Shown: positions 650 to 18,707 of the stretch, one piece after another
How positions within the stretch are numbered: the first letter of the stretch is position 1
Layout: every line of letters begins with the position of its first letter
Virus record (IMG/VR): IMGVR_UViG_3300031993_000069
Strand: one strand, 5' to 3'
DNA: 64,000 nt
Origin: a virus
The notes under the pieces: model-generated
What the model was told of the DNA's origin: nothing
Seen by the model: only the letters and a program-made list of their open reading frames with translations
The model's database searches: none
Translations under genes and position numbers: made by a program

Positions 650-1211
650 AAACATTGGCTAAATTAAATAGAGCCCATGCTTATTTCTACAAAAATAGTA
701 AGTTTAAGGAGCCATTTTAGCTGGGTCAGAATATATTGTTTATAAACCGCGTGCTTCTAGTCGCCTCTCAAATATCGTAAGCACGACGAGATTATGCTTA
801 TTTCTAAAAAGAAGATCAAATGATAGTTGAGGCGCAAAAGCTAATCCGGTAATTATAATAAACAAGCTTTAAATCAATATTTGCTCTGAGCGGTACGACT
901 TATTGTCAAGTATCCGTGTTCGCGAAGCAGCTAACATAGCGCGAGAAACGACAATAAGCAAAAAGGAGCAGAGACTACACTTATTTCTGACCAAAATTTT
1001 TATGAAAGAAAACATAAAATTGGCCGCGACTTAGTTAGTCCTAAATATTTGTTTAAAGCTTGTTTTAATTTTTAGAATAAAATTGTATAATAATATAGAG
1101 CTTATGCTTATTTCTATTGGTTAAAGAAGGTTCGATTCCTTCACCGCCCGCCAATCCCGGGCAGTGATTCTAGCTAAGCCATTACAATTTTTAAAAAAAT
1201 TTATAAAACTA

Positions 1212-1241
1212 TTTACAAAAATAAAAAAATAGTTGTATAAT
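1212..1241 (+). promoter_or_regulatory. sigma70/sigmaA-like promoter (TTTACA-N16-TGTATAAT)
   Basis: TTTACA -35 and extended -10 TGTATAATAT. The same architecture recurs at ~7237, 7541, 8929, 15505, 17428 and, -10 only, at 109, 1085, 3767, 6515, 10205, 13271, 14522, 15074, 18250, 18768, 21348, 30218, 32826, 35274, 60175. Confidence 0.6.
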
Positions 1242-1421
1242 ATTAATGTGAGCGGATGACTCACAAGTTAGAGCCTATACTTATTTCTCAGAAAATATGG
1301 TATTCTAAAGCAGTTAGGCCAGATTGTTATTAAAAACGTTAAGCAGCGCTTAATGTGTTAGACGAACTGGCAGCTCTAGCATATTAAGGGCTGCTTATTT
1401 AGTTAAAGGAGGTCATTAATC

Positions 1422-3437
1422 ATGATGACAAGAAATCAATTCAATGCACTTAGTGCAACCACAATCCCATCCAACATTCATGTCAATGCACAAACTATTT
1501 TGATTGCAAGACATTATTTACTTGCGGCTCCAATTGCCCAAGAAGATGCTATTAAGACTGCATATTACAATGCTTATCTTTTTGCTAACTTCGGTATTGT
1601 TGTCGACAAGCCAAAGCTTTTAAGCGATATTAGCGTTAAGGAAATTGCTGATTTATTCAAGCTTAATGTTCCAGCTTCTTTCTACAAGAACCCACAAGAC
1701 ACTAAGTATTACACTCGCGGTGAACTTTTCGTTAACCAAGTTATCTCTTACTTCTTGGCTTACGGCGAGGAAAACTCTGCCATCGATTTATTCGGTGCTG
1801 ATAAGAAACTCCCAGAATATCCAGAAGGCGACGAAATCAAACTTCGTGAATTCAAGATTTTAACTGCTGACGAAGCTGATGTTGTTTTAGCAGATATTGC
1901 TAAGGCTTACTGTGACTACAAACGTCCATGGTCTTTAGATGAGACTTATGAATTTGTCTGGTTATATGACCACGGTTACTACAAGAACTTTGATGTTCTT
2001 TGCGGTGACAATGCTATTACTATGCTTGAAAAGGATACTAACTTTGCTCGCTTCTTATTTAAGAAAGACTTAGTTAAAATCTCTGTTTCTCGCTGCGGTG
2101 AAAAGTCTAAACTTGTTTTAGATACTGAAACTAGAGACCTTATCCGTAAGGCTATTCCTTTAGTTAAAGATTGCCCAATGACTAAAAAGCAAGCTAAGTA
2201 TTTCAATACTTTAATTGCTAAAGTTGGTGCAACCGGCAAGGTTAAAACTGCTTCTAATGCTAACTCTCCATATGCTAAGGCACAAGCTGCTTTAGATAGA
2301 GGCGATGTTTTAGGCGCAGCTAGAATCTATGCTGCCAACGGTTCTTTATTCGAAAGAAACATCAAGATGTTAATCTCTCGTGCTAATCCAGCAGAAGCAA
2401 TGGAAATCATCAAAATGATTCCAAATAAGAACCCAATCGCTCTTTACCAATTTGTTACTACTTTAATGGAAGACAATGGCGGAAATCGTACATTTACTTT
2501 CACCAAGAACAAATTAGTTAAAAAGCACGTCGAAACTGAGTATGAAGCTAAGTGGAGAAAATCCAGACTTAATGAGGCAACTCGTAAGATGGTCCATGAC
2601 GCTACATTCACTCAAATCGAGGCTGGTTATCGTTTACAACCTTCTTTAGGTAAGGTTTATGTCTCTGAAGACTTCTTCAAAGTTGGTGTCCCTGTCAACA
2701 CTTCTGCCTCTGGCAAAGGTATTGATGTCTTACCAGCTGGTTCTAGAATTCCAGTCAGAGGCAACAAAATCCGTACCTTCGTTCACTGGGAACATGCATT
2801 TGATATCGACTCTTCTTTAGTCATCATTGATGAAAAAGGCAATGTTGACGTTATGGGTTTCTTCAACTACATGCATAAAGCTTATTCTAATGATTTGCTT
2901 TTCTCTGGTGACGTTACAAGCCCAACTGGCACTGAATACTACGATATGGACTTAGATGGACTTCGTAGACATGGTGTCCGCTACATCATCCAAACCTTCC
3001 ATGGTTTCTGCTCTAACCTCAACAGCGGAGAAATCTACTGTGGTTATCAAGACAAGAAGAACCTTAACACTAAGGCTTGGGATCCAAAAAACATTGAATT
3101 AAAAATTCATGTTAAGGGTGATACTCGTGCCTTCATGTCATTCGGTGTCGACTTAGAAACCAATGAAGTCGTTATCTTCAATATGCTCTTAGACTCTGAA
3201 AGCCGTGTCGTCTCTGGCGACATGAAAGATACAGTAATGAAATACTTATCTTCTAGCTGCTTAGAGCTTAATATGGGCCTTGTTGCTACATATAGAGCAT
3301 CTGAAATTGTTGCAACTCCAGAAGAAGCAGATGTCGTCTTTGACGCTACCTATACTGCTCTTGAAGGCCAAAAGGTCGTTCGTCCTTACGAGGTCGAAAA
3401 GCTTGTTGGTTTAGCTTCTGGAGCTGAACTTAACTAA
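1422..3437 (+). CDS. large hypothetical protein (671 aa)
   Basis: Long uninterrupted ORF with RBS AAAGGAGG. No TGA codons. No recognisable motif. Confidence 0.7.
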   Translation: MMTRNQFNALSATTIPSNIHVNAQTILIARHYLLAAPIAQEDAIKTAYYNAYLFANFGIVVDKPKLLSDISVKEIADLFKLNVPASFYKNPQDTKYYTRGELFVNQVISYFLAYGEENSAIDLFGADKKLPEYPEGDEIKLREFKILTADEADVVLADIAKAYCDYKRPWSLDETYEFVWLYDHGYYKNFDVLCGDNAITMLEKDTNFARFLFKKDLVKISVSRCGEKSKLVLDTETRDLIRKAIPLVKDCPMTKKQAKYFNTLIAKVGATGKVKTASNANSPYAKAQAALDRGDVLGAARIYAANGSLFERNIKMLISRANPAEAMEIIKMIPNKNPIALYQFVTTLMEDNGGNRTFTFTKNKLVKKHVETEYEAKWRKSRLNEATRKMVHDATFTQIEAGYRLQPSLGKVYVSEDFFKVGVPVNTSASGKGIDVLPAGSRIPVRGNKIRTFVHWEHAFDIDSSLVIIDEKGNVDVMGFFNYMHKAYSNDLLFSGDVTSPTGTEYYDMDLDGLRRHGVRYIIQTFHGFCSNLNSGEIYCGYQDKKNLNTKAWDPKNIELKIHVKGDTRAFMSFGVDLETNEVVIFNMLLDSESRVVSGDMKDTVMKYLSSSCLELNMGLVATYRASEIVATPEEADVVFDATYTALEGQKVVRPYEVEKLVGLASGAELN

Positions 3438-3465
3438 TAAATTAAGTCAGTCTTTATAAAAAATA

Positions 3466-3494
3466 AGATCCGTAAGAAATTGCGGATTTTATTC
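3466..3494 (+). terminator. rho-independent terminator
   Basis: Hairpin ATCCG-loop-CGGAT followed by a T-run. Confidence 0.5.
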
Positions 3495-3805
3495 GCTAAA
3501 TTAAAGATAACCCTGTACGTAGGGTGTGTATAATGTAAAATGTCACAGCAGATATTTAATGAGGCCTGGCAACATTCCTCCCTCAACCCCGTTGCCAGTA
3601 TTCCGGATGTTCTCTAAAATGTCTAAGAAAATTCTTGGGATAAAAATTGTAGTGACTCCAAGACGAACAGACTTCTTACCAGCGGCTAATAAGCGTATTC
3701 GCTAAAAGTATGTTTATTAGCCGCTTAATATACTATAGATGCTAGCCCTTGAGGCTATTTTTTATTAAATATTGTATAATATATTAGTATTTATAGGAGA
3801 TTTAT

Positions 3806-4147
3806 ATGTTTAAATTAATTAGAGATAAAATTCCAGAACTAACAAAGAAATCTGGTAACATTTGTAATTATGCAAAAGTTGAAAGTCCTGAATTATTCGC
3901 CGGATTATTACGTAGTAAATTAATTGAAGAAGTTAATGAATATTTAGCTTCTGGAACTGTTGATGAACTTGTTGATATTATTACAGTTATTAAAGTTATT
4001 TTAAAGGCAAATAATATTTCAGAAGAAGACTTTGATAAGCTTTATAAAAATAAGCTTGATACAAAGGGCGGTTTTGAAAAACAATACATTGGATTTTATC
4101 CAGATGCTCCGGTAGCCACAGCACGAGAAGAATCTGAAGATAAGTAA
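3806..4147 (+). CDS. MazG/HisE-like NTP pyrophosphohydrolase domain protein (113 aa)
   Basis: N-terminal LIRDKIPE... and an all-alpha E/D-rich pattern typical of PRA-PH/MazG-like phage NTP-PPases. Preceded by a TGTATAATAT promoter. Confidence 0.45.
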   Translation: MFKLIRDKIPELTKKSGNICNYAKVESPELFAGLLRSKLIEEVNEYLASGTVDELVDIITVIKVILKANNISEEDFDKLYKNKLDTKGGFEKQYIGFYPDAPVATAREESEDK

Positions 4148-4287
4148 TTAAATTTAAGCTTATATAAAGAGATTATCTTTGGGGTAATCTTTTTATTTAG
4201 CTAAATTAAATGATAACTTGGCAATGTTATTTAGGGCACGATGGGCCAATATAGCGCTACAGGTTTATCGGAAACGAGGAGATTATT

Positions 4288-5196
4288 ATGGACAATTCAG
4301 TTTATACTGGTTGGAAAAAATGGAGTCCTAGTTCTGATGAATGGCTAACATTATATAATGATGGTAAAGTTCCATTTGAACTAAAAGAAAACCAATATCT
4401 AATTGTCAAAACTGATGGTAGTAGCTCAATTTTTTACTGCTATGAAAATGGGCAATTAAGAAAATTCACTGGTGGTGCAATTAAGACCATCAAAGATTTA
4501 ACTCCGGTTCCATTAGAGGAGCCAAAACAAAAGCAGGATGAAAATAAAAAGCCCGCTAAAAAATATTCTAAAGGCAAGAATATAGTTATTACACCAAGGA
4601 ATGAAGAGCAAGTTTGTGCTTTTGACCTTATGAAAGACCCTACAAAAACTGTTAAATTGTTAACAGGCACTTGGGGCACAGGTAAGACTTTAATTTTAGT
4701 ATCGGCTGCATTAGAAGCATTAAAGCAAGGACGATTTGAAAGAATTGTTTGGATTAGAAATAATGTTGATGTTAAAGATACAAAAGATTTAGGTGCTTTA
4801 CCAGGCGAAGTTATTGATAAATTACTTCCATTTTTAGGACCTTTTATTGACCATGCTGGTGAAAACAGTGTTCGAACTATGTTAAATAAAGGAACACTTG
4901 TAGTTGAACCACTTCAATCATTGAGAGGCCGAAATTTTGAGAATACATTAATTATGTGTTCAGAAGCAGAAAACTTAACAAAAGAGCATATTCAATTAAT
5001 TATTGCTCGTGCTGCTGAGGGCAGTGAAGTTTGGTTTGATGCCGATAACAGACAACGTGACAAAGCTTCATTTGAGAAATCACGTGGTATTGAAACGCTT
5101 ATTGAAAGATTTGCCGGACAAAAGCTTTTCGGTTATGTCCATTTAGTTAAATCTGAGCGTTCTGCAACTGCTGCTATGGCAGACTTATTGAATTAA
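4288..5196 (+). CDS. phoH: PhoH-like ATPase
   Basis: Walker A GTWGTGKT and a PhoH-family C-terminal region. Common phage auxiliary gene. Confidence 0.85.
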   Translation: MDNSVYTGWKKWSPSSDEWLTLYNDGKVPFELKENQYLIVKTDGSSSIFYCYENGQLRKFTGGAIKTIKDLTPVPLEEPKQKQDENKKPAKKYSKGKNIVITPRNEEQVCAFDLMKDPTKTVKLLTGTWGTGKTLILVSAALEALKQGRFERIVWIRNNVDVKDTKDLGALPGEVIDKLLPFLGPFIDHAGENSVRTMLNKGTLVVEPLQSLRGRNFENTLIMCSEAENLTKEHIQLIIARAAEGSEVWFDADNRQRDKASFEKSRGIETLIERFAGQKLFGYVHLVKSERSATAAMADLLN

Positions 5197-5198
5197 CT

Positions 5199-5816
5199 AT
5201 GAAAACTTGAACAATATACTGTCATATTAACAAAATTAATGGTAAAAGATATATTGGCCAAACTAGCAGACAAAAATTAAATTTGAGATGAAAAAGTGGT
5301 TATGGATATACTTTAAAAGACCAAAAGATTTTTGCAGAGGCTATTAAAAAATATGGCTGAGAAAATTTTGATCATCAAGTTTTAGAATCTGGCATTAAAA
5401 CTTTAGAAGAAGCCAATAAAAGAGAAAAATATTGAATTTCTTATTATAATACTTGGGTTTATAGCCAAAATTGTAATGGATATAATATGACTGAAGGTGG
5501 TGATTCTGTTGTTTCTCATACAGCGTGAAATAAAGGAAAACCACAATCAGAAAAACAAAAGCTTGAACATAGCAAAAGAATGTCTGGCAGAAAATTATCT
5601 GAAGAGCATAAAAAAGCTATTAGTGCTGGTCTTCAAAGAAAAGAAAATACCCATAATAAAGCAGTTAAATGCATAGAATTAAATAAAGTTTATAGCTCAG
5701 CAGTAAAAGCATCTACTGAATTAAATATTTTAAGAACAAGTATTACTAATTGCCTGCATAAGCATTCAAATACAGCTGGTGGGTATCATTGAGAGTTCTT
5801 TAAGGAGGAAAACTAA
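5199..5816 (+). CDS. GIY-YIG homing endonuclease with NUMOD-like C-terminus; contains 6 in-frame TGA codons read as Trp
   Basis: Translation with TGA=W gives ...INGKRYIGQTS..., KYGWENF, YWISYYN, AWNKGK and a C-terminal GGYHW, which are hallmark GIY-YIG/NUMOD3 motifs. With standard code the frame breaks at every expected Trp. Confidence 0.75.
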
Positions 5817-5817
5817 A

Positions 5818-6459
5818 TTGTCTCTGGTTATAGCGATAAAAGATAAAGATAGAATTGTGCTTGGCGCTGATAAACAAACCAGCGTAAGTGATTTTAAAGA
5901 CCACTCTAGCACAAAGATTTGGCCTGTCGAAGAACTTCCTGGTGCTTTAATGGGAAGTGTCGGAACTTGTCGTGCATCACAAATTATTCAATATGCTAAT
6001 ATCATCGATAAAAATTTAATTAATGGAGACCTTTCAACAGACTTCATTATTTGTTCATTAGCTCCAACAATTGCTGCAGGCTTAAAAGCTCATGGCATTG
6101 TTGTAGAACCAGGCGAAAATGGCTCGTGTGATATGATGCCAAATTCATTTATATTTGCTTATAAAGACAAAGCTTGAATGATTTGGAATGATTTAAGTGT
6201 AACAGAGATTGGTGACTATTTAGCAATTGGCTCCGGAGCCGATGTTGCTAGAGGTGCTTTATTTGCTACAAAGAAAGAGAAAAATCCGTTTGAGCGTATC
6301 GTTACAAGTATTGATGCCGCTGCCGAGTCAACATTGTTTGTTGATGATGGAATTGATTTATTAGCTACAAAATCGCACAAGGATGATGCAGAGCTTGTTG
6401 CTGCTGCATTTGGTTATAATATTAAAAAGAAATCTGCTGATAATGGTAAGAAGAAGTAG
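5818..6459 (+). CDS. HslV/proteasome-like Ntn-hydrolase peptidase (TTG start; alternative ATG at 5779); one in-frame TGA at 6175
   Basis: SLVIAIKDKDRIVLGADKQTS resembles the HslV N-terminus TTIV..RRNG.VV.AGDGQ.T, and LAIGSGADVARGAL resembles the HslV IAIGSGGPYA motif. RBS AAGGAGG lies 9 nt upstream of the TTG. ORFs 5779..6177 and 6178..6459 are in the same frame, joined by a TGA. Confidence 0.6.
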
Positions 6460-6483
6460 AATTAAATAAATATTAAAACCAGA

Positions 6484-6515
6484 AATCCCGAGTGCGCCAA
6501 AAACATTCGGGATTT
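6484..6515 (+). terminator. rho-independent terminator
   Basis: AATCCCGAG...TTCGGGATTTT hairpin plus U-run after the stop of 5818..6459. Confidence 0.7.
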
Positions 6516-6546
6516 TATTATTGTATAATATTAAAGAGGTATTTAT

Positions 6547-7152
6547 ATGGCAGAAAACTTTCAAGATACAATTGCATCAATTAGAGATGCTTATTTTCCA
6601 GGAAAAAGAACTCCAGAAGAAAATAAAGCTCTTTGTGAGAAATATCCATTCTTAAAATGGTACGGTGATCCTCTTTATATGGGTTATAGTGAAGAAGGTG
6701 AACCAAACTATAAATATACCTGGGAAGATGAAATGCCTGAAGGCTGGAAAATTGCTTTCTGTCCACAAATCTGGGATGAATTAAAAGCTATTCTTGAAAA
6801 AGCTAATTATGTTAATGAATTTAGATTTGTTCAGATCAAAGAAAAATGGGGAACATTAAGATTATATTATGGCGGTGTTCCTAATGAAATTTTTGATGAG
6901 GTTCTTGCTTGGGAACAGAAGTATGATAAGCTTTCAGAAGAAATTTGTATAGACTGCGGTAAAAATAAAGCTACCCATATGTCATTAGGTTGGATTAGCT
7001 TTGTTTGTAAAGATTGTGCTTTAAGGCGTGATGAAGAGCAGTTTAAAAAGTATAATAGTGGCCATGAACATTTTGTTAGATTAGAAAATATCGATGAATT
7101 TTATAATAACCGTGAAGAATATTGGAAAAAATATAAAGACGAAATTGTTTAA
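6547..7152 (+). CDS. hypothetical protein (201 aa)
   Basis: ORF with RBS AAGAGG and promoter TGTATAATAT at ~6517. Confidence 0.6.
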   Translation: MAENFQDTIASIRDAYFPGKRTPEENKALCEKYPFLKWYGDPLYMGYSEEGEPNYKYTWEDEMPEGWKIAFCPQIWDELKAILEKANYVNEFRFVQIKEKWGTLRLYYGGVPNEIFDEVLAWEQKYDKLSEEICIDCGKNKATHMSLGWISFVCKDCALRRDEEQFKKYNSGHEHFVRLENIDEFYNNREEYWKKYKDEIV

Positions 7153-7236
7153 TAAATTAATAAATCAATAAATTATTAAATTAATAAATTATTAAATTAA
7201 TAAAAAATAATTGGCTAAATTATTTTGAAAAAGCTA

Positions 7237-7266
7237 TTTACATTTATAAAAAATAGTTGTATATTA
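7237..7266 (+). promoter_or_regulatory. sigma70-like promoter driving the first tRNA operon
   Basis: TTTACA-N15-TTGTATATTAT. Confidence 0.55.
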
Positions 7267-7349
7267 TTATTGAGCTTGTGCTTACTGCTTGAACGCTGTG
7301 GTTCGAATCCACCTTGCCTGTGGGGAGCAGAAAGATAGCCAAGCCTTAT

Positions 7350-7433
7350 GCCCCGGTGGTGAAATGGTAGACACAAGGCACTTAAAATGCCTCGCCGAAA
7401 GGCATGCCAGTTCGACTCTGGCCCGGGGCACCA
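7350..7433 (+). tRNA. tRNA-Leu(TAA), class II
   Basis: Cloverleaf with acceptor GCCCCGG/CCGGGGC, anticodon loop CTTAAAA, long variable arm, A73 and encoded CCA. Confidence 0.8.
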
Positions 7434-7438
7434 CTCAT

Positions 7439-11875: not shown

Positions 11876-11951
11876 GGGGTATTGGTGCAGCGGTTAACAT
11901 GCCTCCCTGTCACGGAGGAGACCACGGGTTCGAATCCCGTATGCCCCGCCA
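11876..11951 (+). tRNA. tRNA-Asp(GTC)
   Basis: Acceptor GGGGTAT/ATGCCCC, anticodon stem CCTCC/GGAGG with loop CTGTCAC, CCA. Confidence 0.8.
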
Positions 11952-11980
11952 GTTCTTATTCAATTTATTTAGGAGGAGTT

Positions 11981-12283
11981 ATGATTATTACATTTAATGA
12001 TTTTTATGTCAATGTAACAGAAAATAATGTGCATATTCATGACTCTTACAAGATAAAAGGTAAGAAAAGAAAGCTTGAAATCATTAATGCAATCATAGCT
12101 TTCTGTCCAGAAGCTTTCAAAACTAGAACAATTAAGTCAGTTCTGAGAGAGTGGCGTGCACATAATGTCTTATATAAATTACATATTGCTAGAAATAGCA
12201 CAATGCATACAGACATTGAAGCACATCAAAAATTATTTTATAAAATTAGCTATTTACTTATTAATATATTCGGTATAGAATAA
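11981..12283 (+). CDS. hypothetical protein (100 aa)
   Basis: ATG with RBS AGGAGGAG 5 nt upstream, directly after tRNA-Asp. Confidence 0.5.
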   Translation: MIITFNDFYVNVTENNVHIHDSYKIKGKKRKLEIINAIIAFCPEAFKTRTIKSVLREWRAHNVLYKLHIARNSTMHTDIEAHQKLFYKISYLLINIFGIE

Positions 12284-12289
12284 GTATAT

Positions 12290-12365
12290 GGCTGGGTAGC
12301 CAAGTGGTTAAGGCGTCAAGCTCATACCTTGAAGATCGTCAGTTCAAATCTGACCCCAGCTACCA
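12290..12365 (+). tRNA. tRNA-Met(CAT)
   Basis: Acceptor GGCTGGG/CCCAGCT (G1·U72), loop CTCATAC, CCA. Confidence 0.7.
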
Positions 12366-12370
12366 GGTAT

Positions 12371-12445
12371 GCTCGCTTAATTCAGCGGGAGAAGGCAATC
12401 CTTACAAGATTGAGGTCGGCAGTTCGAATCTGTCAGCGAGCACCA
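12371..12445 (+). tRNA. tRNA-Val(TAC)
   Basis: Acceptor GCTCGCT/AGCGAGC, anticodon stem CAATC/GATTG with loop CTTACAA, CCA. Confidence 0.75.
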
Positions 12446-12644
12446 CGGCATGTATGCAATTATAAAACGCAGCCTACCGGTAAAGTAGGTGCTCTGAGTA
12501 GTCTCGAAGTAAGAGCTTTGTGGAATATTGCTAAATCGAGACTTTAGTAACAATATTCTAGGTGCAATTCCCACCATGCCAACCACCGCTCGGCTAGAGC
12601 ACAGCAAATCATACGGCTGTGTAGGAGAATCCCCGAGCAACCAC

Positions 12645-12718
12645 GCGGGAATAGGACAGTGGTAGTCCATCTGCTTGCCATGCAGACTACGCGGGTTCGA
12701 TTCCCGTTTCCCGCTCCA
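12645..12718 (+). tRNA. tRNA-Gly(GCC)
   Basis: Acceptor GCGGGAA/TTCCCGC, loop TTGCCAT, CCA. Confidence 0.8.
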
Positions 12719-12789
12719 CCAGGACAGATAAAGATTAGGTTCTTTATTAGGTTCTATGGCTGGACAAATCGATAAAACCAGCCACATTT

Positions 12790-12863
12790 GCGGGTATCGT
12801 CCAATGGTAGGGCCTCTGCCTTCCAAGCAGAAGATACCGGTTCGATCCCGGCTACCCGCTCCA
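12790..12863 (+). tRNA. tRNA-Gly(TCC)
   Basis: Acceptor GCGGGTA/TACCCGC, loop CTTCCAA, CCA. Confidence 0.8.
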
Positions 12864-12892
12864 TGCAGTATTTAGAAGGAGAAAATGCAATG

Positions 12893-12985
12893 AAAACACT
12901 TAAACTCAGTAAACTAAGTCGCCGTCGCTGTATAGCATGTTTTCGTTGTTGTCTTATAAATACCGCGTTAGCTCAATTGGATTAG
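12893..12985 (+). CDS. small Cys-rich basic peptide (30 aa) candidate
   Basis: RBS AGAAGGAGAAAATGCAATG. The peptide MKTLKLSKLSRRRCIACFRCC... has CxxC..CC spacing. Overlaps the 5' end of tRNA-Arg. Confidence 0.2.
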   Translation, partial: KTLKLSKLSRRRCIACFRCCLINTALAQLD

Positions 12986-13039
12986 AGCATATCGCTACGA
13001 ACGATAAGGTTGTGGGTTCGAGCCCTACACGCGGTGCCA
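12962..13039 (+). tRNA. tRNA-Arg(ACG)
   Basis: Acceptor ACCGCGT/ACGCGGT, loop CTACGAA, CCA. Confidence 0.8.
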
Positions 13040-13045
13040 GACATA

Positions 13046-13122
13046 GGATAGGTACCCAAGTGGCTTAAGGGAGCGGTCTGCAACACCGTTATTCGTGGGT
13101 TCGAATCCCATCCTATCCTCCA
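13046..13122 (+). tRNA. tRNA-Cys(GCA)
   Basis: Acceptor GGATAGG/CCTATCC, loop CTGCAAC, CCA. Confidence 0.8.
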
Positions 13123-13125
13123 AAT

Positions 13126-13200
13126 GGTCGTATAGCTCAACGGCAGAGCGGGCTCCTTATAAGGGCTAGGTTCCTGGTTCGAATCCAGGTGCGACCACCA
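13126..13200 (+). tRNA. tRNA-Ile(TAT) (AUA-decoding type)
   Basis: Acceptor GGTCGTA/TGCGACC, anticodon stem GGCTC/GGGCT (2 G·U) with loop CTTATAA, CCA. Confidence 0.55.
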
Positions 13201-13301
13201 AAACATGTTAATAGCACGCTCCTTTATGAAAAATCTTCAATATAAAGGAGTTTATTTATTTCAGCAAATATTGTATAATATAAAAGCAAGGAGCTATAAA
13301 A

Positions 13302-13820
13302 ATGATTGGTAAACACTTAAAAGACTATAAAAAAGCTTATAAAGCTGACCGCAGAGAAAACAGAAGAACTTGCGTTAAAAGAAATTCTGATTGGAAAAAA
13401 CGCTGGTTACCATTTATTAAGTATGATCATGATTTTGACGGCTTCTTCCTAATTGAACTTATGGTTCATAAATTACATATTATGCTTGATTACTATGACC
13501 ATGGCAAATATTGTATGCAAGTCGATGAGAGCCGACTTGAAATTGTTGAAAGCTTAAAAGAAGCTTGTAGACTTGGTGATTTAATCTTAGAGGATGATTT
13601 CAATGAACCTGCCTATAAAGTTATGATGGAACACCACCGTATGTGGACTGAGCCATGCAAAGACAATAGTCATCTTTGTGAAATTAAAATGGAATGGGAT
13701 AGCCCAGAGGCTAAGGCTGAATATGATAGGCTTGAAAAAGAAACTGATGCTCTCAGAGAAAAGACTATCGATGAATTCTTCGATTTTGTTAGAAAACATT
13801 ATCGTGAATGGTGGGATTAA
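13302..13820 (+). CDS. hypothetical protein (172 aa)
   Basis: ORF behind TGTATAATATAAAAGCAAGGAG. Confidence 0.6.
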   Translation: MIGKHLKDYKKAYKADRRENRRTCVKRNSDWKKRWLPFIKYDHDFDGFFLIELMVHKLHIMLDYYDHGKYCMQVDESRLEIVESLKEACRLGDLILEDDFNEPAYKVMMEHHRMWTEPCKDNSHLCEIKMEWDSPEAKAEYDRLEKETDALREKTIDEFFDFVRKHYREWWD

Positions 13821-13861
13821 TTAGTCCTCATCGAAAATGTCATTGAAAAAAACTAGACATT

Positions 13862-13952
13862 GGAGGAATACCCAAGAGGCCGAAGGGGACGGTTTGCTAA
13901 ACCGTTAGTGGTCGCAAGGCCAGCGAGGGTTCAAATCCCTCTTCCTCCGCCA
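13862..13952 (+). tRNA. tRNA-Ser(GCT), class II
   Basis: Acceptor GGAGGAA/TTCCTCC, anticodon stem ACGGT/ACCGT with loop TTGCTAA, long variable arm, G73, CCA. Confidence 0.8.
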
Positions 13953-13957
13953 TCTAT

Positions 13958-14034
13958 GCCCCGGTAACCGAATTGGCATAGGTACTAGACTTAGAATCTA
14001 GGTTCTGTGGGTTCAAGTCCCACTCGGGGTACCA
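13958..14034 (+). tRNA. class I (77 nt) tRNA with anticodon TAG (a Leu anticodon) and short variable loop
   Basis: Acceptor GCCCCGG/TCGGGGT (two G·U), anticodon stem CTAGA/TCTAG with loop CTTAGAA, 4-nt variable loop, T-loop GGTTCAAGTCC, A73, CCA. Confidence 0.55.
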
Positions 14035-14037
14035 TAT

Positions 14038-14415
14038 GGGCTCGTACTGGTTTCGATTGGTATTTGATGCTTATGACTACAGCAAGCTGATAACTTACTA
14101 TCAAACAAAAACAAACGACAAAACAAACTTTATGGCACACCTTGCCAACAACCAAATGGTTGCTGCTCGCGCCTAGTTCGCGAGAATGGTGATTGAGCTA
14201 GATAAGGTCGAATTTAGTTCTCTATTAATCAGACCTCGATGTTTATATCTAAGTAACTCCATATAAATGTTTAAATAAAGAGTAGACAACTGCTAGTATC
14301 GGATCGAAGGACTTGAGGTTCGCCGATAAAAAGAATATTTCTCAGGTTAAAGCTGTAATTAACGTTGTGGGGGTTTGGTATCAAGACAGGAGTTCGATTC
14401 TCCTCGGGTCCACCA
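14038..14415 (+). ncRNA. ssrA: tmRNA (transfer-messenger RNA)
   Basis: The 5' end GGGCTCGTACTGGTTTCGATTGG resembles the canonical tmRNA 5' end GGGGCUGAUUCUGGAUUCGAC. The 3' end AGGAGTTCGATTCTCCTCGGGTCCACCA pairs with the 5' acceptor and has G3·U70 and A73 (Ala identity). Length 378 nt. The internal frame ...NNQMVAARA-TAG is a candidate tag ORF. Confidence 0.75.
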
Positions 14416-14419
14416 TAAT

Positions 14420-14506
14420 GGGCGAGTGGCGTAACTGGTAGCCGCAATGGTCTAAGAAGCCATTGACCGAAAGGTCGTAGGGGTTCAAGTCCCCTCTCGC
14501 CCACCA
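14420..14506 (+). tRNA. tRNA-Leu(AAG), class II, A34
   Basis: Acceptor GGGCGAG/CTCGCCC, anticodon stem ATGGT/GCCAT with loop CTAAGAA, long variable arm TGACCGAAAGGTC, A73, CCA. Confidence 0.6.
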
Positions 14507-14561
14507 GAGTTATCTTTAATAATATTGTATAATATATTAGATATTGAAAGGAATTTATCTT

Positions 14562-14894
14562 ATGTATAGTTTACAAGAATTAATTGAACATGGATATGTC
14601 GATAGTATTACAACTGATGGAACACATCTTGGTGATGGTTATACTATTGTTGTTAAACTAAGCAGATATTCTATTGGTAAGATTACAATTAATGTTGGTA
14701 TTGATGAATACTTAGATGATGCTGTTACGCTTATTAATGGTATTATTGATATTCAAGAAAGCTTAAATAAAGAAGCTAAACCGGAAGAAAAGCCAACTAT
14801 TAGACATGTAACTGATCCAGATGAAATAAAGGAAATACTTTCTGGAACAGCAATTAAAGACACAAAAATTGAACCAGAGGATTATGCGGAATAA
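14562..14894 (+). CDS. hypothetical protein (110 aa)
   Basis: ATG behind promoter TGTATAATAT (14525) and RBS GAAAGGAA. Confidence 0.55.
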   Translation: MYSLQELIEHGYVDSITTDGTHLGDGYTIVVKLSRYSIGKITINVGIDEYLDDAVTLINGIIDIQESLNKEAKPEEKPTIRHVTDPDEIKEILSGTAIKDTKIEPEDYAE

Positions 14895-15073
14895 TGTATC
14901 AAATTATTAAAGACGATAAATATTATCTATATAATGATATAGGCGAAGAATTAATGACAATTACCTTCGACAATTCATTACCAGGAGACCAAGTAGTTAT
15001 TACTACACAGGATGAAGTTTATGCTGGTCCAATAAAATTTGTTACTTTTTCTGGAGATATTCCAAAAGAGTAG
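14894..15073 (+). CDS. small hypothetical protein (59 aa)
   Basis: ATG overlaps the upstream stop (ATAATG). Coding-like composition. Confidence 0.35.
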   Translation: MYQIIKDDKYYLYNDIGEELMTITFDNSLPGDQVVITTQDEVYAGPIKFVTFSGDIPKE

Positions 15074-15089
15074 CTTGTATATTATTAAT

Positions 15090-15186
15090 AGGGGCTTAGT
15101 GTAACGGCAGCACAACGGTCTTCAAAACCGCAAAGCGGGGGCCTCCAAAACCCCAGGTGCGGGTTCGAATCCTGCAGCCCCTGCCA
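15090..15186 (+). tRNA. Trp-like opal-suppressor tRNA, anticodon TCA, with an unusual 25-nt extra arm
   Basis: Acceptor AGGGGCT/AGCCCCT, G73, CCA. The D-arm and anticodon stem ACGGT/ACCGC are nearly identical to tRNA-Trp(CCA) at 8744, but the loop is CTTCAAA. A 25-nt insertion AAAGCGGGGGCCTCCAAAACCCCAG between the anticodon and T arms forms a hairpin. Own promoter TTGTATATTATTAAT sits immediately upstream. Confidence 0.7.
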
Positions 15187-15252
15187 TATAGAGCCTGTAC
15201 TTATTTCTATCACAAACCTTGAAATTTGCACGCAGTAGTCAGGCCATTTATT

Positions 15253-15438
15253 TTTATGAAATTTAAGTATAGAATTATTTGGGTTAATACAGTTAAAGGA
15301 AAACAAGAATATGTTGATATCGATGACCAGCATATTGTATTGTTTGTCGCTAAGAAAAAAGTTAGCGATGGAATGCAAGGAGTCATCATTCAAGTTTCTG
15401 GTGATCCATCTATGACTGACCCAGATGATGCTAGCTGA
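15253..15438 (+). CDS. hypothetical protein (61 aa)
   Basis: ORF downstream of motif A. Confidence 0.3.
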   Translation, partial: FMKFKYRIIWVNTVKGKQEYVDIDDQHIVLFVAKKKVSDGMQGVIIQVSGDPSMTDPDDAS

Positions 15439-15504
15439 CCGGCTATTGATGCGAATGCTTCTGAAGCTGAAAATAAAATAATTTAAAAAAATTAAAAAAA
15501 ACTA

Positions 15505-15534
15505 TTTACAAAAAATAAAAAAGTATTGTATAAT
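15505..15534 (+). promoter_or_regulatory. sigma70-like promoter
   Basis: TTTACA-N16-TGTATAATAAT. Confidence 0.6.
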
Positions 15535-15539
15535 AATAT

Positions 15540-16180
15540 TGTGAGTGTTAAGCAAGCACTCCAAAAGTGTTCTTTGAAAAATTTTAATTGGCACCTCGAT
15601 GAAGACATCTTGCACGATGGTCGAGGCTCGGCTCTAAGATGATGATAACTGGTGGGATACTGCTGGGTAAGTTGAAACTTCCAAAGTGATGAAGAAGTAA
15701 ACCTATTTAATTAGGATTGAGTCGATGGCGCAATTTGTTGCAGCGATTTAGATGAAAACACATATGCGGGTCCGACAAGAAGCTCTGGCCGTAAGGTCAT
15801 CTCACCTGTGGTATTAAGCCTGAGAAACTTAATGCCCGGTAACTCAAAGGAAGGACGCGACTTGATGTCAAGAAATTGACTATAACTGGTAATGTGTTTG
15901 TACAAGTAGCCGTATGTCGTACTACAAAGCTTTAACAGGATATTTATTAAATACTTTGCTGAAGCTCGGTGAAAGTTGATAGGTAAAGGTCCTATCTGTG
16001 GAAGTCGTAAGACCATTGGAGAAGTTATAGGGTAGCTCCCTGTGACTCAGCCTCCCGTGAGCATCCATTAATAAAGTCAAGCAATAAGGGTTGTATGGTG
16101 AAGACCGGAAATTAAAATTTTTTAAAGAGCACTTAAAAGTATTGCTAAATTAAGTAGACTTAAAAAGTCAGAAGGAGAAA
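15540..16180 (+). ncRNA. unidentified ~640-nt ORF-free structured RNA candidate
   Basis: Lies between a strong promoter and a small ORF. GC-enriched relative to the genome, with no ORF above 60 aa on the + strand. No RNase P P4 motif (GGAAAGUCC) seen. Confidence 0.3.
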
Positions 16181-16184
16181 AAGC

Positions 16185-16274
16185 ATGTTAAACTTAGTTA
16201 CTGTTAACGTTAGACCTACAGCAACAGCCAAACCAGCGTTGGTAAGTTTTGATATGCTCATGACCTCTGATAGA
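16185..16274 (+). CDS. small peptide (29 aa) candidate
   Basis: RBS AAGGAGAAAAAGC then ATG; followed by a perfect terminator. Confidence 0.25.
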
Positions 16275-16302
16275 TAAGTTAACTTAAAAACTTAACTAAG
16301 AT

Positions 16303-16335
16303 ACCGCAGTTGTGATGAGCAGCTGCGGTTTTTTT
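16303..16335 (+). terminator. rho-independent terminator
   Basis: CCGCAGTTGTGATGAGCAGCTGCGG followed by TTTTTTT. Confidence 0.85.
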
Positions 16336-16506
16336 AAGAAAAAATAACTAGCAATGTAAAACTCATAAGAGAGACGTGACGAAACCAAGGACTTCTGTGC
16401 CTTGGTCCCAAAAGTCTAAGGGATGAAATGAAGCCAGCAGTGCACAAAAAACTTGTTGCCTGATAAAAAAAGAGGCTGGTCAGGCAGAAGAAGAACGAAA
16501 GCTAGT

Positions 16507-16590
16507 TAATTATATGGGCCGATAGTTTAATTGGGAAAATACCCGCCCTGCAAGCGGGAGTTAGGGGTTCAAATCCCCACGTGTCCACCA
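16507..16590 (+). pseudogene. tRNA-like element (Ala-TGC-like anticodon arm, T-arm and CCA) with a non-pairing acceptor stem
   Basis: CCCGC-CCTGCAA-GCGGG anticodon-like arm, GGGGTTCAAATCCCC T-arm and a 3' CCA. The 5' GGGCCGA does not pair with the 3' CGTGTCC. Confidence 0.3.
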
Positions 16591-16595
16591 TTTAT

Positions 16596-16671
16596 GGGGG
16601 TGTAGCTCATCTGGGAGAGCACTTGATTAGCATTCAAGAGGTAGCGAGTTCGATCCTCGTCACTTCCACCA
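16596..16671 (+). tRNA. tRNA-Ala(AGC), A34
   Basis: Acceptor GGGGGTG/CACTTCC with G3·U70 and A73. Anticodon stem CTTGA/TCAAG with loop TTAGCAT. CCA. Confidence 0.6.
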
Positions 16672-16735
16672 GACAGAACCTGTGCTTATTTCTAACGTTA
16701 AATTTGGGATTTAAAAAGTAGCAGCCAGGTCAATT

Positions 16736-16811
16736 GCCGCCTTAGCTCAACTGGCAGAGCAACCGCCTTGTAAGCGGTAGGTTACTGGTTCGATTCCGGT
16801 AGGCGGCACCA
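16736..16811 (+). tRNA. tRNA-Thr(TGT)
   Basis: Acceptor GCCGCCT/AGGCGGC, loop CTTGTAA, CCA. Confidence 0.8.
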
Positions 16812-16815
16812 CTTT

Positions 16816-16892
16816 GGGGGTGTAGCTCAATTGGGAGAGCGCTCGCCTTGCAAGCGAGGGGTTGCGGGTTCAAGTCCCGTCACGTTCCACCA
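16816..16892 (+). tRNA. tRNA-Ala(TGC) with a 1-nt bulge in the 3' acceptor strand
   Basis: Acceptor GGGGGTG with G3·U70, anticodon stem CTCGC/GCGAG with loop CTTGCAA. The 3' strand CACGTTCC carries one extra nt. CCA. Confidence 0.6.
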
Positions 16893-17049
16893 CTAAAATG
16901 TAAGCCTATACTTATTTCTCCTCCTAAATTGTTGGGGGCCTTAGTTAGGCAATCAAAAAATTCATGCCACGGAAGGAAAACCGTATAAACCCTTACAGCT
17001 TCGTTCTTAGCCAGACGTAGACTAAGATAAAGTTAAGCTGATGTAATTT

Positions 17050-17126
17050 CGGGAGTTGGCTCAGCTTGGTAGAGCACTTGATTTGGGATCAAGGGGTCAA
17101 GGGTTCGAATCCCTTACTCCCGACCA
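17050..17126 (+). tRNA. tRNA-Pro(TGG)
   Basis: Acceptor CGGGAGT/ACTCCCG, loop TTTGGGA, CCA. Confidence 0.8.
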
Positions 17127-17251
17127 TTAGAGAACCTGTACTTATTTCTTAGCTTTGGGAGCCGCTGTTTGTTGGTTCGAGTCCAGCCTTCCCGACCATT
17201 ATCGGGAAGTAGGCAAATTGGTAAAGCCGGCGTTTATTAGTCAGGTCATAT

Positions 17252-17327
17252 GCGCTTTTAGCTCAGTTGGGAGAGCGTCTGCTTGACGTGCAGAAGGTCG
17301 TAGGTTCGAGCCCTGCAAGGCGCACCA
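17252..17327 (+). tRNA. tRNA-Val(GAC)
   Basis: Acceptor GCGCTTT/AAGGCGC, anticodon stem TCTGC/GCAGA with loop TTGACGT, CCA. Confidence 0.75.
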
Positions 17328-17331
17328 TTAT

Positions 17332-17408
17332 GCTCCTCTAGCCCAACTGGCAGAGGCAATGAGCTCAAACCTCATTCAGTATCGGTTCGAATCCGATGGG
17401 GAGTACCA
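17332..17408 (+). tRNA. class I (77 nt) tRNA with anticodon CAA (a Leu anticodon) and short variable loop
   Basis: Acceptor GCTCCTC/GGGGAGT, anticodon stem ATGAG/CTCAT with loop CTCAAAC, 5-nt variable loop, A73, CCA. Confidence 0.5.
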
Positions 17409-17427
17409 AAAAATTATTAAAAAACTG

Positions 17428-17456
17428 TTTACAACGCAGAATAAATGTTGTATAAT
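17428..17456 (+). promoter_or_regulatory. sigma70-like promoter
   Basis: TTTACA-N14-TTGTATAAT. Confidence 0.55.
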
Positions 17457-17566
17457 TATGAATGTAAGGTCGCGATGTGTGAGCATTAAACTATCGGCCC
17501 CTCACCTCCGAAAACCGTAGGCCGAGTCGGACCTTATATATAGATTGTTCAAAAAGGAGAAGAGTT

Positions 17567-17647
17567 ATGATGACAATGAACAAGAAAAACATCAAGAATA
17601 GAAAAACTAGAAAAACTAGTTCATTTAGTCATGGCTTAATTCAGTAA
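17567..17647 (+). CDS. small basic peptide (26 aa) candidate
   Basis: RBS AAAAGGAGAAGAG then ATGATG; followed by a terminator hairpin and T-run at ~17678-17712. Confidence 0.25.
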   Translation: MMTMNKKNIKNRKTRKTSSFSHGLIQ

Positions 17648-17772
17648 AACACTAATAATACGTTAACGTAAGATAGAGTGCCGAGTGGTTAAGCCGCCCG
17701 GCATTTTTTCTGGGATTACGTTAGCGCAACGGACAGGGACGACATAAGAGCGTGCTTTTCCAGAAATCACAT

Positions 17773-17849
17773 ACCTCCGTAGCTCAACTGGACAGAGCAT
17801 CGGTCTTCTAAACCGCAGGTTGGGCGTTCGAGTCGCCCCGGGGGTGCCA
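17773..17849 (+). tRNA. tRNA-Arg(TCT)
   Basis: Acceptor ACCTCCG/CGGGGGT, loop CTTCTAA, CCA. Confidence 0.75.
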
Positions 17850-17853
17850 AATC

Positions 17854-17928
17854 GCGTCCATAGCCAAGTGGTATGGCAATCGGCTTTTAACCGATGTACC
17901 GAGGGTTCGAATCCTTCTGGGCGCACCA
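17854..17928 (+). tRNA. tRNA-Lys(TTT)
   Basis: Acceptor GCGTCCA/TGGGCGC, loop CTTTTAA, CCA. Confidence 0.8.
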
Positions 17929-17933
17929 CATAT

Positions 17934-18010
17934 GCCTCCATAGCAAAATTGGCTAATGCACCTGACTCTTAATCAGGGGATTCTGGGTTCGAGTCCCAGT
18001 GGGGGTACCA
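17934..18010 (+). tRNA. tRNA-Lys(CTT)
   Basis: Acceptor GCCTCCA/TGGGGGT, loop CTCTTAA, CCA. Confidence 0.75.
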
Positions 18011-18012
18011 AT

Positions 18013-18088
18013 GCGCCGGTAGCTCAGCCGGTAGAGCACGTGACTTTTAATCACGGGGTCCAGAGTTCGAACCTCTGCCGGCGCACCA
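18013..18088 (+). tRNA. tRNA-Lys(TTT), second copy
   Basis: Acceptor GCGCCGG/CCGGCGC, loop CTTTTAA, CCA. Confidence 0.75.
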
Positions 18089-18090
18089 AT

Positions 18091-18165
18091 GCTGATTTAG
18101 TTTAATTGGTAAAATAATTCTCTCGTAAAGAATAGTAGTGTGTTCGAAACATACAATCAGCACCA
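18091..18165 (+). tRNA. tRNA-Thr(CGT), AT-rich
   Basis: Acceptor GCTGATT/AATCAGC, anticodon stem ATTCT/AGAAT with loop CTCGTAA, T-arm GTGTGTTCGAAACATAC, CCA. Confidence 0.7.
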
Positions 18166-18261
18166 TTAGAGCCTATGCTTATTTCTAGCTCAATGAGAGC
18201 GTTTGACATTTAATCAAAAGGTATAGCTAGGCCATTCTTGATAAATCTACTGTATAATATA

Positions 18262-18500
18262 ATATGGTTGCGATGAATTTTGCAGTTTCGACCCATGTGC
18301 ACAGAAATAGAAACTGCCTATAGGTTAATGTTGACCATAGTTATTGGTGCAGAGTACGTAATCTGCGAGGTAAACTCCGGTGTATGTTCATTCGCCGACC
18401 TATGAAGCTAAAAAATGAACGGAGATAGCGTATAAAAATGATTTATGAAAAGTACGTAACGCCCATGAGGAGAGGCCTCATGCTTCAATAAAAAACAAAA
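18262..18500 (+). ncRNA. unidentified structured RNA candidate (~240 nt) behind the 18250 promoter
   Basis: ORF-free. Ends in the hairpin CATGAGG-AGAG-GCCTCATG immediately before the next tRNA. Confidence 0.3.
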
Positions 18501-18503
18501 CTT

Positions 18504-18579
18504 GCCGGCTTAGCTCATCTGGTAGAGCAATTCACTAGTAATGAATAGGTGGTCAGTTCGAGTCTGGCAGCCGGCACCA
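18504..18579 (+). tRNA. tRNA-Thr(AGT), A34
   Basis: Acceptor GCCGGCT/AGCCGGC, anticodon stem ATTCA/TGAAT with loop CTAGTAA, CCA. Confidence 0.6.
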
Positions 18580-18707
18580 TGAGCCTATACTTATTTCTAA
18601 ATTCGCCTTATAAGCGGGTGGTCGCAGGTTCGAGTCCTGCCGCCGCAACCATTACATTGCGGCGTAGCTCAGTTGGGAGAGCACCTATTTCTAGTTAGGC
18701 CTTTCTG

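Follow-up and report, generated by a model that had tools for sequence, protein, structure and literature searches.

Handle-closed small RNAs displaying tRNA parts in a phage tRNA array, and their probable TerD-fold protein partner

The YrlA-type Y RNAs (RF02553), which work with Ro60/Rsr proteins, are built from a terminal stem that binds the protein and a second module that mimics tRNA (Chen et al. 2014, PMC4201824). The YrlA of Mycobacterium smegmatis carries a 7-bp acceptor stem, where it is cut by RNase P, and CCA is added in vivo (PMC4201824). Here, a family of RNAs with a comparable outline is described in a 64,000-nt stretch of phage-like DNA from the IMG/VR virus record IMGVR_UViG_3300031993_000069. 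This whole stretch, hereafter the window, has ~35% G+C and holds 36 tRNA genes, a transfer-messenger RNA (tmRNA) gene and a ROOL RNA. Fourteen copies of an 18-nt motif (motif A) each pair with a partner further downstream (motif B) to form a helix, the handle, that closes a small RNA, the unit. The sequence enclosed by the handle, the payload, often resembles a piece of tRNA. Like YrlA, these RNAs have 5′ and 3′ ends that pair into a stem, proposed here to bind protein as the YrlA stem does, and they lie in phages beside the gene of their presumed partner, often in multiple copies.

Phage T4 provides an example of other transcripts in such surroundings, as its species 1 and 2 RNAs are stable small RNAs co-transcribed with phage tRNA clusters. 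Together with ROOL and GOLLD, they share with the units the property of being non-tRNA RNAs that lie within phage tRNA islands and are processed along with the tRNAs. Unlike all of these, the units are small, multi-copy and handle-sharing, with no known sequence or structural relation to them. A further precedent comes from phage T5, whose tRNA-Lys counters the tRNA-targeting defence PARIS (PMC11464382). The units resemble such tRNAs in being phage tRNA-related RNAs that may handle anticodon nucleases, and Lys-UUU loops are among their commonest payloads. However, the anti-PARIS tRNAs are complete and replace cleaved ones, whereas many units are anticodon stem-loops on a handle, which could act only as decoys or tethers.

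The longest units also recall the circularly permuted tRNA genes of Cyanidioschyzon merolae (PMC3978253) and the split tRNAs of Nanoarchaeum, in that the 3′ half precedes the 5′ half in one transcript and a flanking helix joins the halves. In contrast to these, the units occur in a bacterial-virus setting, with no bulge-helix-bulge and no archaeal or eukaryal splicing endonuclease context; the handle bears two 1-nt bulges on one strand, unlike the 3-4-3 bulge-helix-bulge. Unlike permuted tRNAs, most units are missing either the anticodon loop or both the acceptor and the T arm.

The handle helix

An earlier note on this DNA had singled out the 18-nt motif GAGCCTRTRCTTATTTCT. A search allowing up to three mismatches recovered 14 copies at exactly the positions it had listed, all on the + strand, compared with 0.42 expected and a maximum of 3 in shuffled sequences. 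Within the 64 kb, the exact 9-nt core CTTATTTCT was counted 13 times, invariably inside a motif copy and never on the - strand. Five of the copies fall in the stretch 660-1420, which is free of open reading frames (ORFs), as had been noticed.

A second motif, AGT(T/C)AGGCC, had been reported downstream of seven copies and described as partly complementary to the first. The motif is real, but a partner exists for all 14 copies and not just for those seven. When the expected motif B of each copy was taken as the reverse complement of motif A positions 9-11, 3-7 and 1 and then sought downstream, every motif A copy in the window was found to have its own 9-nt partner. These partners start at 719, 839, 1033, 1172, 1312, 7337, 8729, 9874, 15237, 16723, 16943, 18225, 17239 and 18693, and the resulting units are 50-122 nt long. 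The pairing is stronger than the earlier note had claimed: 12 of the 14 partners are exact 9/9 complements, and the remaining two depart from this by one G.U pair and one terminal A.A. Motif B shifts together with motif A (GCUUA/UAAGC, GAUUA/UAAUC, GACUA/UAGUC, ACCUG/CAGGU and GCUUG/CAAGC), and because of this covariation the fixed consensus had caught only half of the partners.

The handle is thus a bulged 9-bp helix in which 5′ G[A]NNNNN[Y]RCU pairs with AGYNNNNNC 3′. It comprises a terminal G-C pair, a bulged A, five covarying pairs, a bulged pyrimidine and three final pairs (RCU/AGY), and is followed by an invariant single-stranded UAUUUCU. Unconstrained minimum-free-energy folding recovers this helix in 12 of the 14 window units. 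Across 39 distinct handles, 99.7% of cells are paired and six of the nine pairs have changed on both sides (77 cells), counts that are biased towards pairing by the choice of motif B through complementarity. One handle pair exhibits all four Watson-Crick types. This level of pairing and covariation was reached by none of 500 shuffles, and sliding the partner strand reduces pairing to 7-54%.

The bias is controlled for by a non-circular test in related phages, in which sites were chosen without use of pairing. Among 129 distinct occurrences of [GA]A-N7-CTTATTTCT, 80 are matched within 170 nt by an exact complement of their own, versus 20 of 5160 (0.39%) for the complements of other units. The partnerless occurrences are mostly one recurrent string in unrelated contigs, outside the RNA family. 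This string, GAACTTATGCTTATTTCT, appears once each in loci L005, L006, L008, L009 and L012 and in ~30 other unrelated viral contigs, always without a motif B, and may belong to a conserved coding sequence (ELMLIS in one frame) unrelated to the RNAs. Motif A can be taken, with near certainty, as one strand of the helix that closes these small RNAs, which form a multi-copy family displaying tRNA parts.

Conservation extends slightly beyond the helix itself. An A at position -1 (94%), a U at -2 (73%) and the bulged A2 and Y8 are retained; a pyrimidine stands just 5′ of motif B in 90% of units, and an A lies just 3′ of the unit in 74%. In the window, no further unit was found even with a relaxed core and helix. 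A motif scan of IMG/VR gave 99 loci, ~45 of which together contain more than 100 units (89 distinct), often in tandem, mostly on contigs of 135-237 kb and with many further compensated helix variants. Across the family, the handle-closed RNAs measure 45-180 nt. In L100, the closest relative of the window, promoters and handles are conserved, and a compensated A7G change separates orthologous units.

At E<=1, Rfam 15 detects only tRNA, tmRNA, ROOL and sub-threshold YrlA cores in the window. The unit family and its pairing are missing from Rfam 15, and no description of them was found in the searchable literature. No near-identical phage was found in GenBank, where matches are tRNA-sized only. 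A self-cleaving ribozyme was considered and rejected, as no Rfam ribozyme family is matched and only 27 nt are conserved.

Payloads and their place in the tRNA array

Three tRNA-like classes of payload are found inside the handle: mimics of an anticodon stem-loop, a T arm joined to a closed acceptor stem, and complete tRNA domains in the circularly permuted order of YrlA. The short units present canonical 7-nt loops of the anticodon type, such as UUUGGGA (Pro UGG with G37), CUUUUAA (Lys UUU), CUGCAAA (Cys GCA), CUUGUAA and CUGGAAA. A canonical anticodon-like hairpin is found in 25 of 50 short units versus 6.7% of shuffled inserts; the types include Pro UGG (10), Lys UUU (6) and Cys GCA (3), and the Lys UUU hairpins are often preceded by a D-arm-like hairpin. 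In the window, where all units are on the + strand, an anticodon-stem-loop mimic with the Cys GCA-type loop CUGCAAA fills unit 7 (8680-8737; 58 nt), 4 nt after tRNA-Gln and 6 nt before tRNA-Trp. Unit 10 (16676-16731; 56 nt), between tRNA-Ala(agc) and tRNA-Thr(tgt), displays the Pro UGG-type loop UUUGGGA with G37. Unit 13 (18169-18233; 65 nt), 3 nt after tRNA-Thr(cgt), combines a D-arm-like hairpin with an anticodon stem-loop of the Lys-UUU type (loop CAUUUAA). Two other short units lie in the same array: unit 9 (15191-15245; 55 nt; handle GAGCCUGUA.../AGUCAGGCC), 4 nt after the tRNA with anticodon tca, and unit 11 (16902-16951; 50 nt), 13 nt after tRNA-Ala(tgc), in which the first handle pair is the A.A and the other eight are intact.

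Middle-sized units consist of a T arm and an acceptor stem whose closing loop starts with CCA. This arrangement is seen in unit 4 (1098-1180; 83 nt; handle GAGCUUAUG.../AGCUAAGCC), with GAAGGUUCGAUUCCUUC as its T arm. Unit 6 (7272-7345; 74 nt; handle GAGCUUGUG.../AGCCAAGCC) also has a T-arm payload, carries a variant of the single-stranded tract (CUUACUGCU) and is followed 4 nt later by tRNA-Leu.

The long units adopt a permuted order of T arm, 7-8-bp acceptor stem with a short CCA-containing loop, and D arm. Unit 8 (9761-9882; 122 nt), 3 nt after tRNA-Asp, has a 7-bp closed acceptor stem, and unit 12 (17132-17247; 116 nt), between tRNA-Pro and tRNA-Val, has one of 8 bp with a CCAUUA loop. Unit 14 (18581-18701; 121 nt) begins 1 nt past tRNA-Thr(agt); its payload opens with an anticodon hairpin (loop CUUAUAA), to which T arm, acceptor stem and D arm are added, and the 7-8-bp acceptor stem is closed by a CCAUUACA loop. 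A full anticodon hairpin of this kind is an extra found in some long units (18581, L057, L002); in most, the position of the anticodon stem instead runs into the handle. At locus L058 (10895-11072), the acceptor loop of a tRNA-like unit of 178 nt itself contains a second unit, 54 nt long and of the anticodon type, flanked by spacers of 5 and 4 nt. Such few-nucleotide spacers, like those between tRNAs and units, suggest that the acceptor loop is treated like real tRNA ends.

The likeness to YrlA is concentrated in these long units, all three of which (9761, 17132, 18581) contain the T arm, acceptor-like stem-loop and D arm of its tRNA-like module. The module is partial in 1098 and 7272, both with a T arm and the former also with a closed acceptor stem, and is absent in nine short units. 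Weak Rfam YrlA matches lie at 9797-9859 in unit 8 and at 17163-17233 in unit 12, and unit 14 gives the best match (40 bits). However, the best scores of 40.1, 28.2 and 24.4 bits compare with a gathering score of 69 and cover only model positions 23-86 of 114. Unlike YrlA, the units lack the Rsr/Ro60 contact motif GNCGAAN0-1G, their handle 5′ strand being GAGCCUAUACUUAUUUCU (position frequencies, 89 units). Their payloads are also modular, including anticodon-stem-loop-only and minihelix-only forms, and the 14 copies are embedded in a tRNA array. Nor do the units count as ordinary tRNAs, with a contiguous cloverleaf, an anticodon loop and free acceptor ends: ARAGORN calls none of them, and none attains the Rfam RF00005 threshold.

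Local alignments of window units to the phage's own tRNAs score below the tRNA-versus-tRNA background, which rules out the units as recent copies of those tRNAs. At one orthologous position, the window and L100 carry different payloads, a T arm with acceptor stem in one and an anticodon-type payload in the other. Such a swap indicates that payloads behave as exchangeable cassettes.

The five units of the ORF-free stretch precede the gene of a 671-aa protein. Unit 1 (671-727; 57 nt) has the handle GAGCCCAUGCUUAUUUCU ... AGCUGGGUC with one G.U pair. Unit 2 (788-847; 60 nt; GAGAUUAUG.../AGCUAAUCC) shows the compensatory change GAUUA/UAAUC, and unit 3 (971-1041; 71 nt; GAGACUACA.../AGUUAGUCC) encloses a long A/U hairpin. 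Unit 5 (1271-1320; 50 nt) is the nearest to the protein gene, in its 5′ leader, and its payload hairpin AGAAAAUAUGGUAUUC is kept in L063 and L100. Between units 2 and 3 lies a conserved non-coding block (848-970, +), in which the stretch GAGCGGTACGACTT..GTCAA is kept in L100; its predicted folding is not unusual (z = -0.14).

Eight of the 14 window units follow a tRNA (Gln, Asp, SeC/tca, Ala-agc, Ala-tgc, Pro, Thr-cgt and Thr-agt), at gaps of 1-5 nt in seven cases and 13 nt in one. The earlier note was correct about this adjacency but counted too many cases, with at least ten copies placed 0-6 nt after a tRNA CCA. Four units are followed by the next tRNA after 4-6 nt (7350, 8744, 16736, 17252). 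Across loci, a unit starts 1-6 nt after a tRNA 3′ end in 20 cases and ends 4-8 nt before the next tRNA in 26, and units are spaced 7-30 nt from each other. The short gaps between units and tRNAs indicate that both are parts of the same polycistronic precursors.

Some units appear to have promoters of their own. Copies had been placed just past -10 boxes at three positions, and this holds for 1098 and 7272, where the box ends 6 nt before the unit, but not for 1271, where it ends at 1241, ~29 nt upstream. The extended -10 box TGTATAAT (1084-1091, +) precedes unit 4 and is kept in L100. A promoter-like TTTACA-N18-TATAAT (1212-1241, +) heads the transcript with unit 5 and the 671-aa ORF, in a region where ~50 nt are identical in L100, and TTTACA-N17-TATATT (7237-7265, +) precedes unit 6. 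The promoter type TTTACA-N17/18-TATAAT recurs on the + strand at 1212, 7237, 7543, 8929, 15505 and 17428. No window unit is followed by a U-run, which speaks against the antiterminator (or terminator) role once suggested, and none of 17 terminator-like sites in 1-19000 coincides with a unit.

The tRNA-adjacent ends of the units would arise most simply from ordinary tRNA processing. At the 3′ end, RNase P would cut the downstream tRNA and exonucleases would then trim back to the helix. The 5′ end would come either from transcription initiation or from cleavage at the conserved UA|G that lies a few nucleotides past the preceding tRNA, and the closed handle would shield both ends. The long units, with their 7-8-bp acceptor stem and CCA in the loop, are probably cut there by RNase P, by analogy with M. 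smegmatis YrlA, and the halves would be held together by the handle.

The neighbouring protein and its remote relatives

The candidate partner of the handle is the 671-aa protein encoded at 1422-3437 (+), which matches no Pfam family. Its N-terminal half is helical and its C-terminal domain has the TerD beta-sandwich fold (cf. TerD-domain proteins, Pfam PF02342). In this it differs from the YrlA partners, as helical repeats and a TerD fold take the place of TROVE/vWA domains. The ORF is found at 19 unit loci; its strand never differs from that of the units, one unit lies upstream of it and, in many cases, one to five more lie downstream. It alone recurs widely beside units, as no other window ORF matches more than 6 unit loci.

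A search starting from the protein gave 29 loci (23 viral, 6 genome-bin) at 39-81% identity, and in 29 of 29 a unit on the same strand ends ~10-140 nt before the start codon. Some of these handles are altered yet compensated: in L126 and L128, U9 is paired to A, and L127 lacks the Y8 bulge. Loci L124, L125, L126 and L128 are minimal, reduced to a promoter, a single unit of 45-47 nt and the protein gene. The units of three of them, all in genome bins, are at 1549-1594 (L124), 3901-3947 (L125) and 3869-3914 (L126). A U-run directly follows the unit in L124 and L125 and lies ~15 nt downstream in L126, where the handle could double as an attenuator, as in the other two.

The protein belongs to a PHROG of unknown function, with more than 535 close relatives and at least 1,537 clusters at 50% identity, and no description of its function was found in the searchable literature. 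All five phage proteins tested match NCBIfam NF041916 (MXAN_6230/SCO0854 family RING domain-containing protein), in its C-terminal half only, which shows that a cellular relative with an added RING domain exists. PADLOC anti-defence annotation returned no meaningful match; the sole one was a marginal hit to the WXIN protein (E=0.016).

Remote homologues turned up, by structural and by sequence searches, in four cultured phages, Weasels2, LpeD, WXIN and XacN1, each beside an array of similar RNAs. In Rhodococcus phage Weasels2 (L129 5829-6216), the gene lies in a tRNA island, 3 kb from RtcB, and four tandem units occupy the 390-nt gap after it. As in the other three phages, their handle differs from that of the window but keeps to its plan; in Weasels2 it runs from a covarying outer helix through a conserved loop and a 6-bp inner helix, which also covaries, to a single-stranded UUACUUC, after which comes the payload. 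One Weasels2 payload is arranged like window unit 18581, with anticodon hairpin, T arm, closed acceptor and D arm, and a partial YrlA match of 26 bits is obtained. In the other three phages, tandem units lie in the non-coding gap directly upstream of the gene: two units with GCUUACUUCUA in Lactobacillus phage LpeD (L130 2930-3110), five with GCYUUCAU in Mycobacterium phage WXIN (L131 3560-3950) and three with UUCCUUCUA in Xanthomonas phage XacN1 (L132 2990-3400). Within these three loci, the core motifs are confined to the arrays, bar three isolated matches of the degenerate WXIN pattern, and the arrays give no match in Rfam 15; in all four phages the array is unannotated.

A pyrimidine-rich tract, YUUMYUUCU, is common to the remote arrays and the window family. 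That the gene recurs together with this kind of RNA and the shared tract in phages of hosts from different phyla is the main argument, from synteny, that protein and handle cooperate. The unit RNAs probably work with the adjacent TerD-fold protein.

Possible functions and genomic setting

The best explanation, with a probability of roughly 0.55, is a Y-RNA-like ribonucleoprotein system whose handle and protein partner are not of the Ro/Y type. In this model, the handle RNAs would be transcribed on one strand, inside phage tRNA arrays or from their own promoters. The 671-aa protein, with its helical repeats and TerD-fold domain, would bind the handle encoded next to it, forming a ribonucleoprotein. 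The payload would then tether or sequester tRNA-recognising factors, for example anticodon nucleases, enzymes of tRNA modification or processing, or the ribosome, which would protect or tune the large pool of tRNAs carried by the phage. The role of the unit RNAs as decoys or tethers is proposed by analogy only, with Ro60/Y RNA as the model. A wider version, in which a helical-repeat/TerD protein and arrays of handle RNAs serve large tRNA-rich phages of several bacterial phyla as programmable decoys or tethers aimed at host factors, anticodon nucleases for example, which attack tRNA or modify it, a non-homologous analogue of Ro60/Y RNA, is put forward tentatively and is rather doubtful.

Several points weigh against the ribonucleoprotein model. 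Many payloads, including those of the first three units of the window and, by a wider count, of all five units at 671-1320, do not look like tRNA in any recognisable way. The anticodon types are diverse, which makes a single nuclease target unlikely. On the protein side, structural searches gave no informative match for the N-terminal half of the 671-aa protein, RNA binding is not an established role of the TerD fold, and no TROVE/Ro protein, RtcB or RNA ligase was found among the window ORFs scanned. The proposed contact between protein and RNA is read from synteny, which related phages share by descent. To these is added the bias of the 39-handle counts mentioned above.

The units could instead be punctuation or stability elements that act in cis within tRNA operons, where the helix would serve just to mark processing sites or to stop exonucleases between tRNAs, with no role in trans. 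Their abutting of tRNAs at gaps of 1-8 nt, the conserved UA|G at the 5′ boundary and a closed helix that would protect both ends all fit such a role. However, many tRNA junctions of the same window array have no unit, while tandem units occur without tRNAs. The processing signal of the earlier note belongs to this reading. It and the idea of a signal primarily attached to tRNAs are at odds with the minimal systems, in which a lone unit stands before the protein gene and no tRNA array was apparent, although these loci were not put through a tRNA scan. The invariant UAUUUCU and the bulges exceed the needs of a clamp, and payloads are conserved or canonical tRNA parts; a purely cis role is unlikely. 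A further reading takes the units as operators, autoregulatory or attenuating, in the leader of the protein gene, with the remaining copies as titrating or relic sites. The constant presence of a unit in the 5′ leader of the gene at the 29 protein-first loci and the U-runs, terminator-like at L124 and L125 and further downstream at L126, argue for it. This account is more doubtful still, as it leaves 13 further window copies, up to 17 kb away in tRNA arrays and with elaborate payloads; the proximal unit of the window has no U-run after it, and the Weasels2 array lies downstream of the gene. Because an operator, too, would have to be bound by the protein at its handle, this account falls within the ribonucleoprotein model as a special case and is no exclusive rival.

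Another possibility concerns the long units, which might be genuine permuted or split tRNA genes that yield two-piece tRNAs after cleavage of the acceptor loop, with the short units as degenerate remnants. The order of 3′ half and 5′ half, the 7-8-bp acceptor stems, CCA right after the 3′ strand and the intact T and D arms are what such genes would contain, and the unit nested in the acceptor loop at L058 and the M. smegmatis YrlA precedent point the same way. This is quite improbable: most long units have no anticodon loop, their anticodon stem opening into the handle, ~36 ordinary tRNAs are already present in the phage, the units go uncalled by ARAGORN and the Rfam tRNA model, and more than half of all units have no acceptor and T arms. 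Lastly, the earlier suggestion that the motifs are the ends of a small mobile element would make the units MITE- or REP-like repeats with tRNA genes as their target. Such repeats would be expected in several copies, preferentially near tRNAs and with differing payloads at orthologous positions, but the units lie on one strand only and keep syntenic positions across phages at 39-81% protein identity. No transposase or integrase is associated with them, there are no target duplications, and the ends covary to preserve pairing in place of being identical terminal repeats, so that a mobile element is very improbable. Terminator, MITE/REP and CRISPR-like readings fail together on strand use, covariation, synteny and lack of U-runs.

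Phage tRNA islands are usually seen only as a supply of tRNAs for codon usage or anti-defence. Here, a different class of RNA makes up as much as a quarter of the "genes" of such an island, missed by annotation pipelines and by Rfam 15. If the ribonucleoprotein model is correct, it would give an unannotated protein family a testable function and provide a second, independent version of the Ro/Y-RNA design of a protein-binding stem joined to a tRNA mimic, which bears on tRNA mimicry in RNA surveillance. Anticodon stem-loops on a common handle would also be natural decoy candidates against tRNA-targeting immunity. The cultured phages with analogous arrays (LpeD, Weasels2, WXIN and XacN1) make the question directly testable.

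A full-length ROOL RNA (15571-16127, +; Rfam 213 bits, gathering 99) lies in the tRNA array, 325 nt past the unit at 15191-15245, and has its own promoter, TTTACA-N18-TATAAT, at 15505-15534. Complementarity between handle and window ROOL was not found: AGAAATAAG is absent from the window + strand, and no listed sub-string (shortest AGAAATA / GAAATAA) occurs inside ROOL. In related phages, GOLLD is found in place of ROOL, at 9181-9694 in L010, 5016-5531 in L046 and 6758-7279 in L070, at ~0.5-1 kb from a handle unit in the first two and ~5 kb in the third. The units thus co-occur with either of two cage-forming RNAs.

Elsewhere in the array, the tmRNA (14038-14415, +; tag DKTNFMAHLANNQMVAARA) is flanked by tRNA-Leu genes at distances of 3-4 nt. 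The tRNA with anticodon tca (15090-15186, +; 97 nt), called SeC by ARAGORN, may be a UGA suppressor, and a tRNA with an odd anticodon loop (CCUGCAA) at 16516-16587 (+) is detected by Rfam only. No tRNA-His was found in the window. A Thg1-like tRNA-His guanylyltransferase / 3′-5′ polymerase is encoded at 24159-25109 (+; Pfam 1.6e-30; PHROG 1.8e-81), a PhoH-like ATPase at 4288-5196 and two metallophosphoesterases at 34296-35995; these genes may represent RNA-end-repair functions near the array. Further along, three proteins of ~900-1040 aa with long collagen triple-helix repeats are encoded at 46480-49197, 51206-54328 and 55210-58305 (+). A few kb upstream of them are ORFs with CBM_5_12 (38487-41243, 41364-42671 and 42933-44024) and Peptidase_S74 (42933-44024) domains, and together these ORFs are probably tail fibres.

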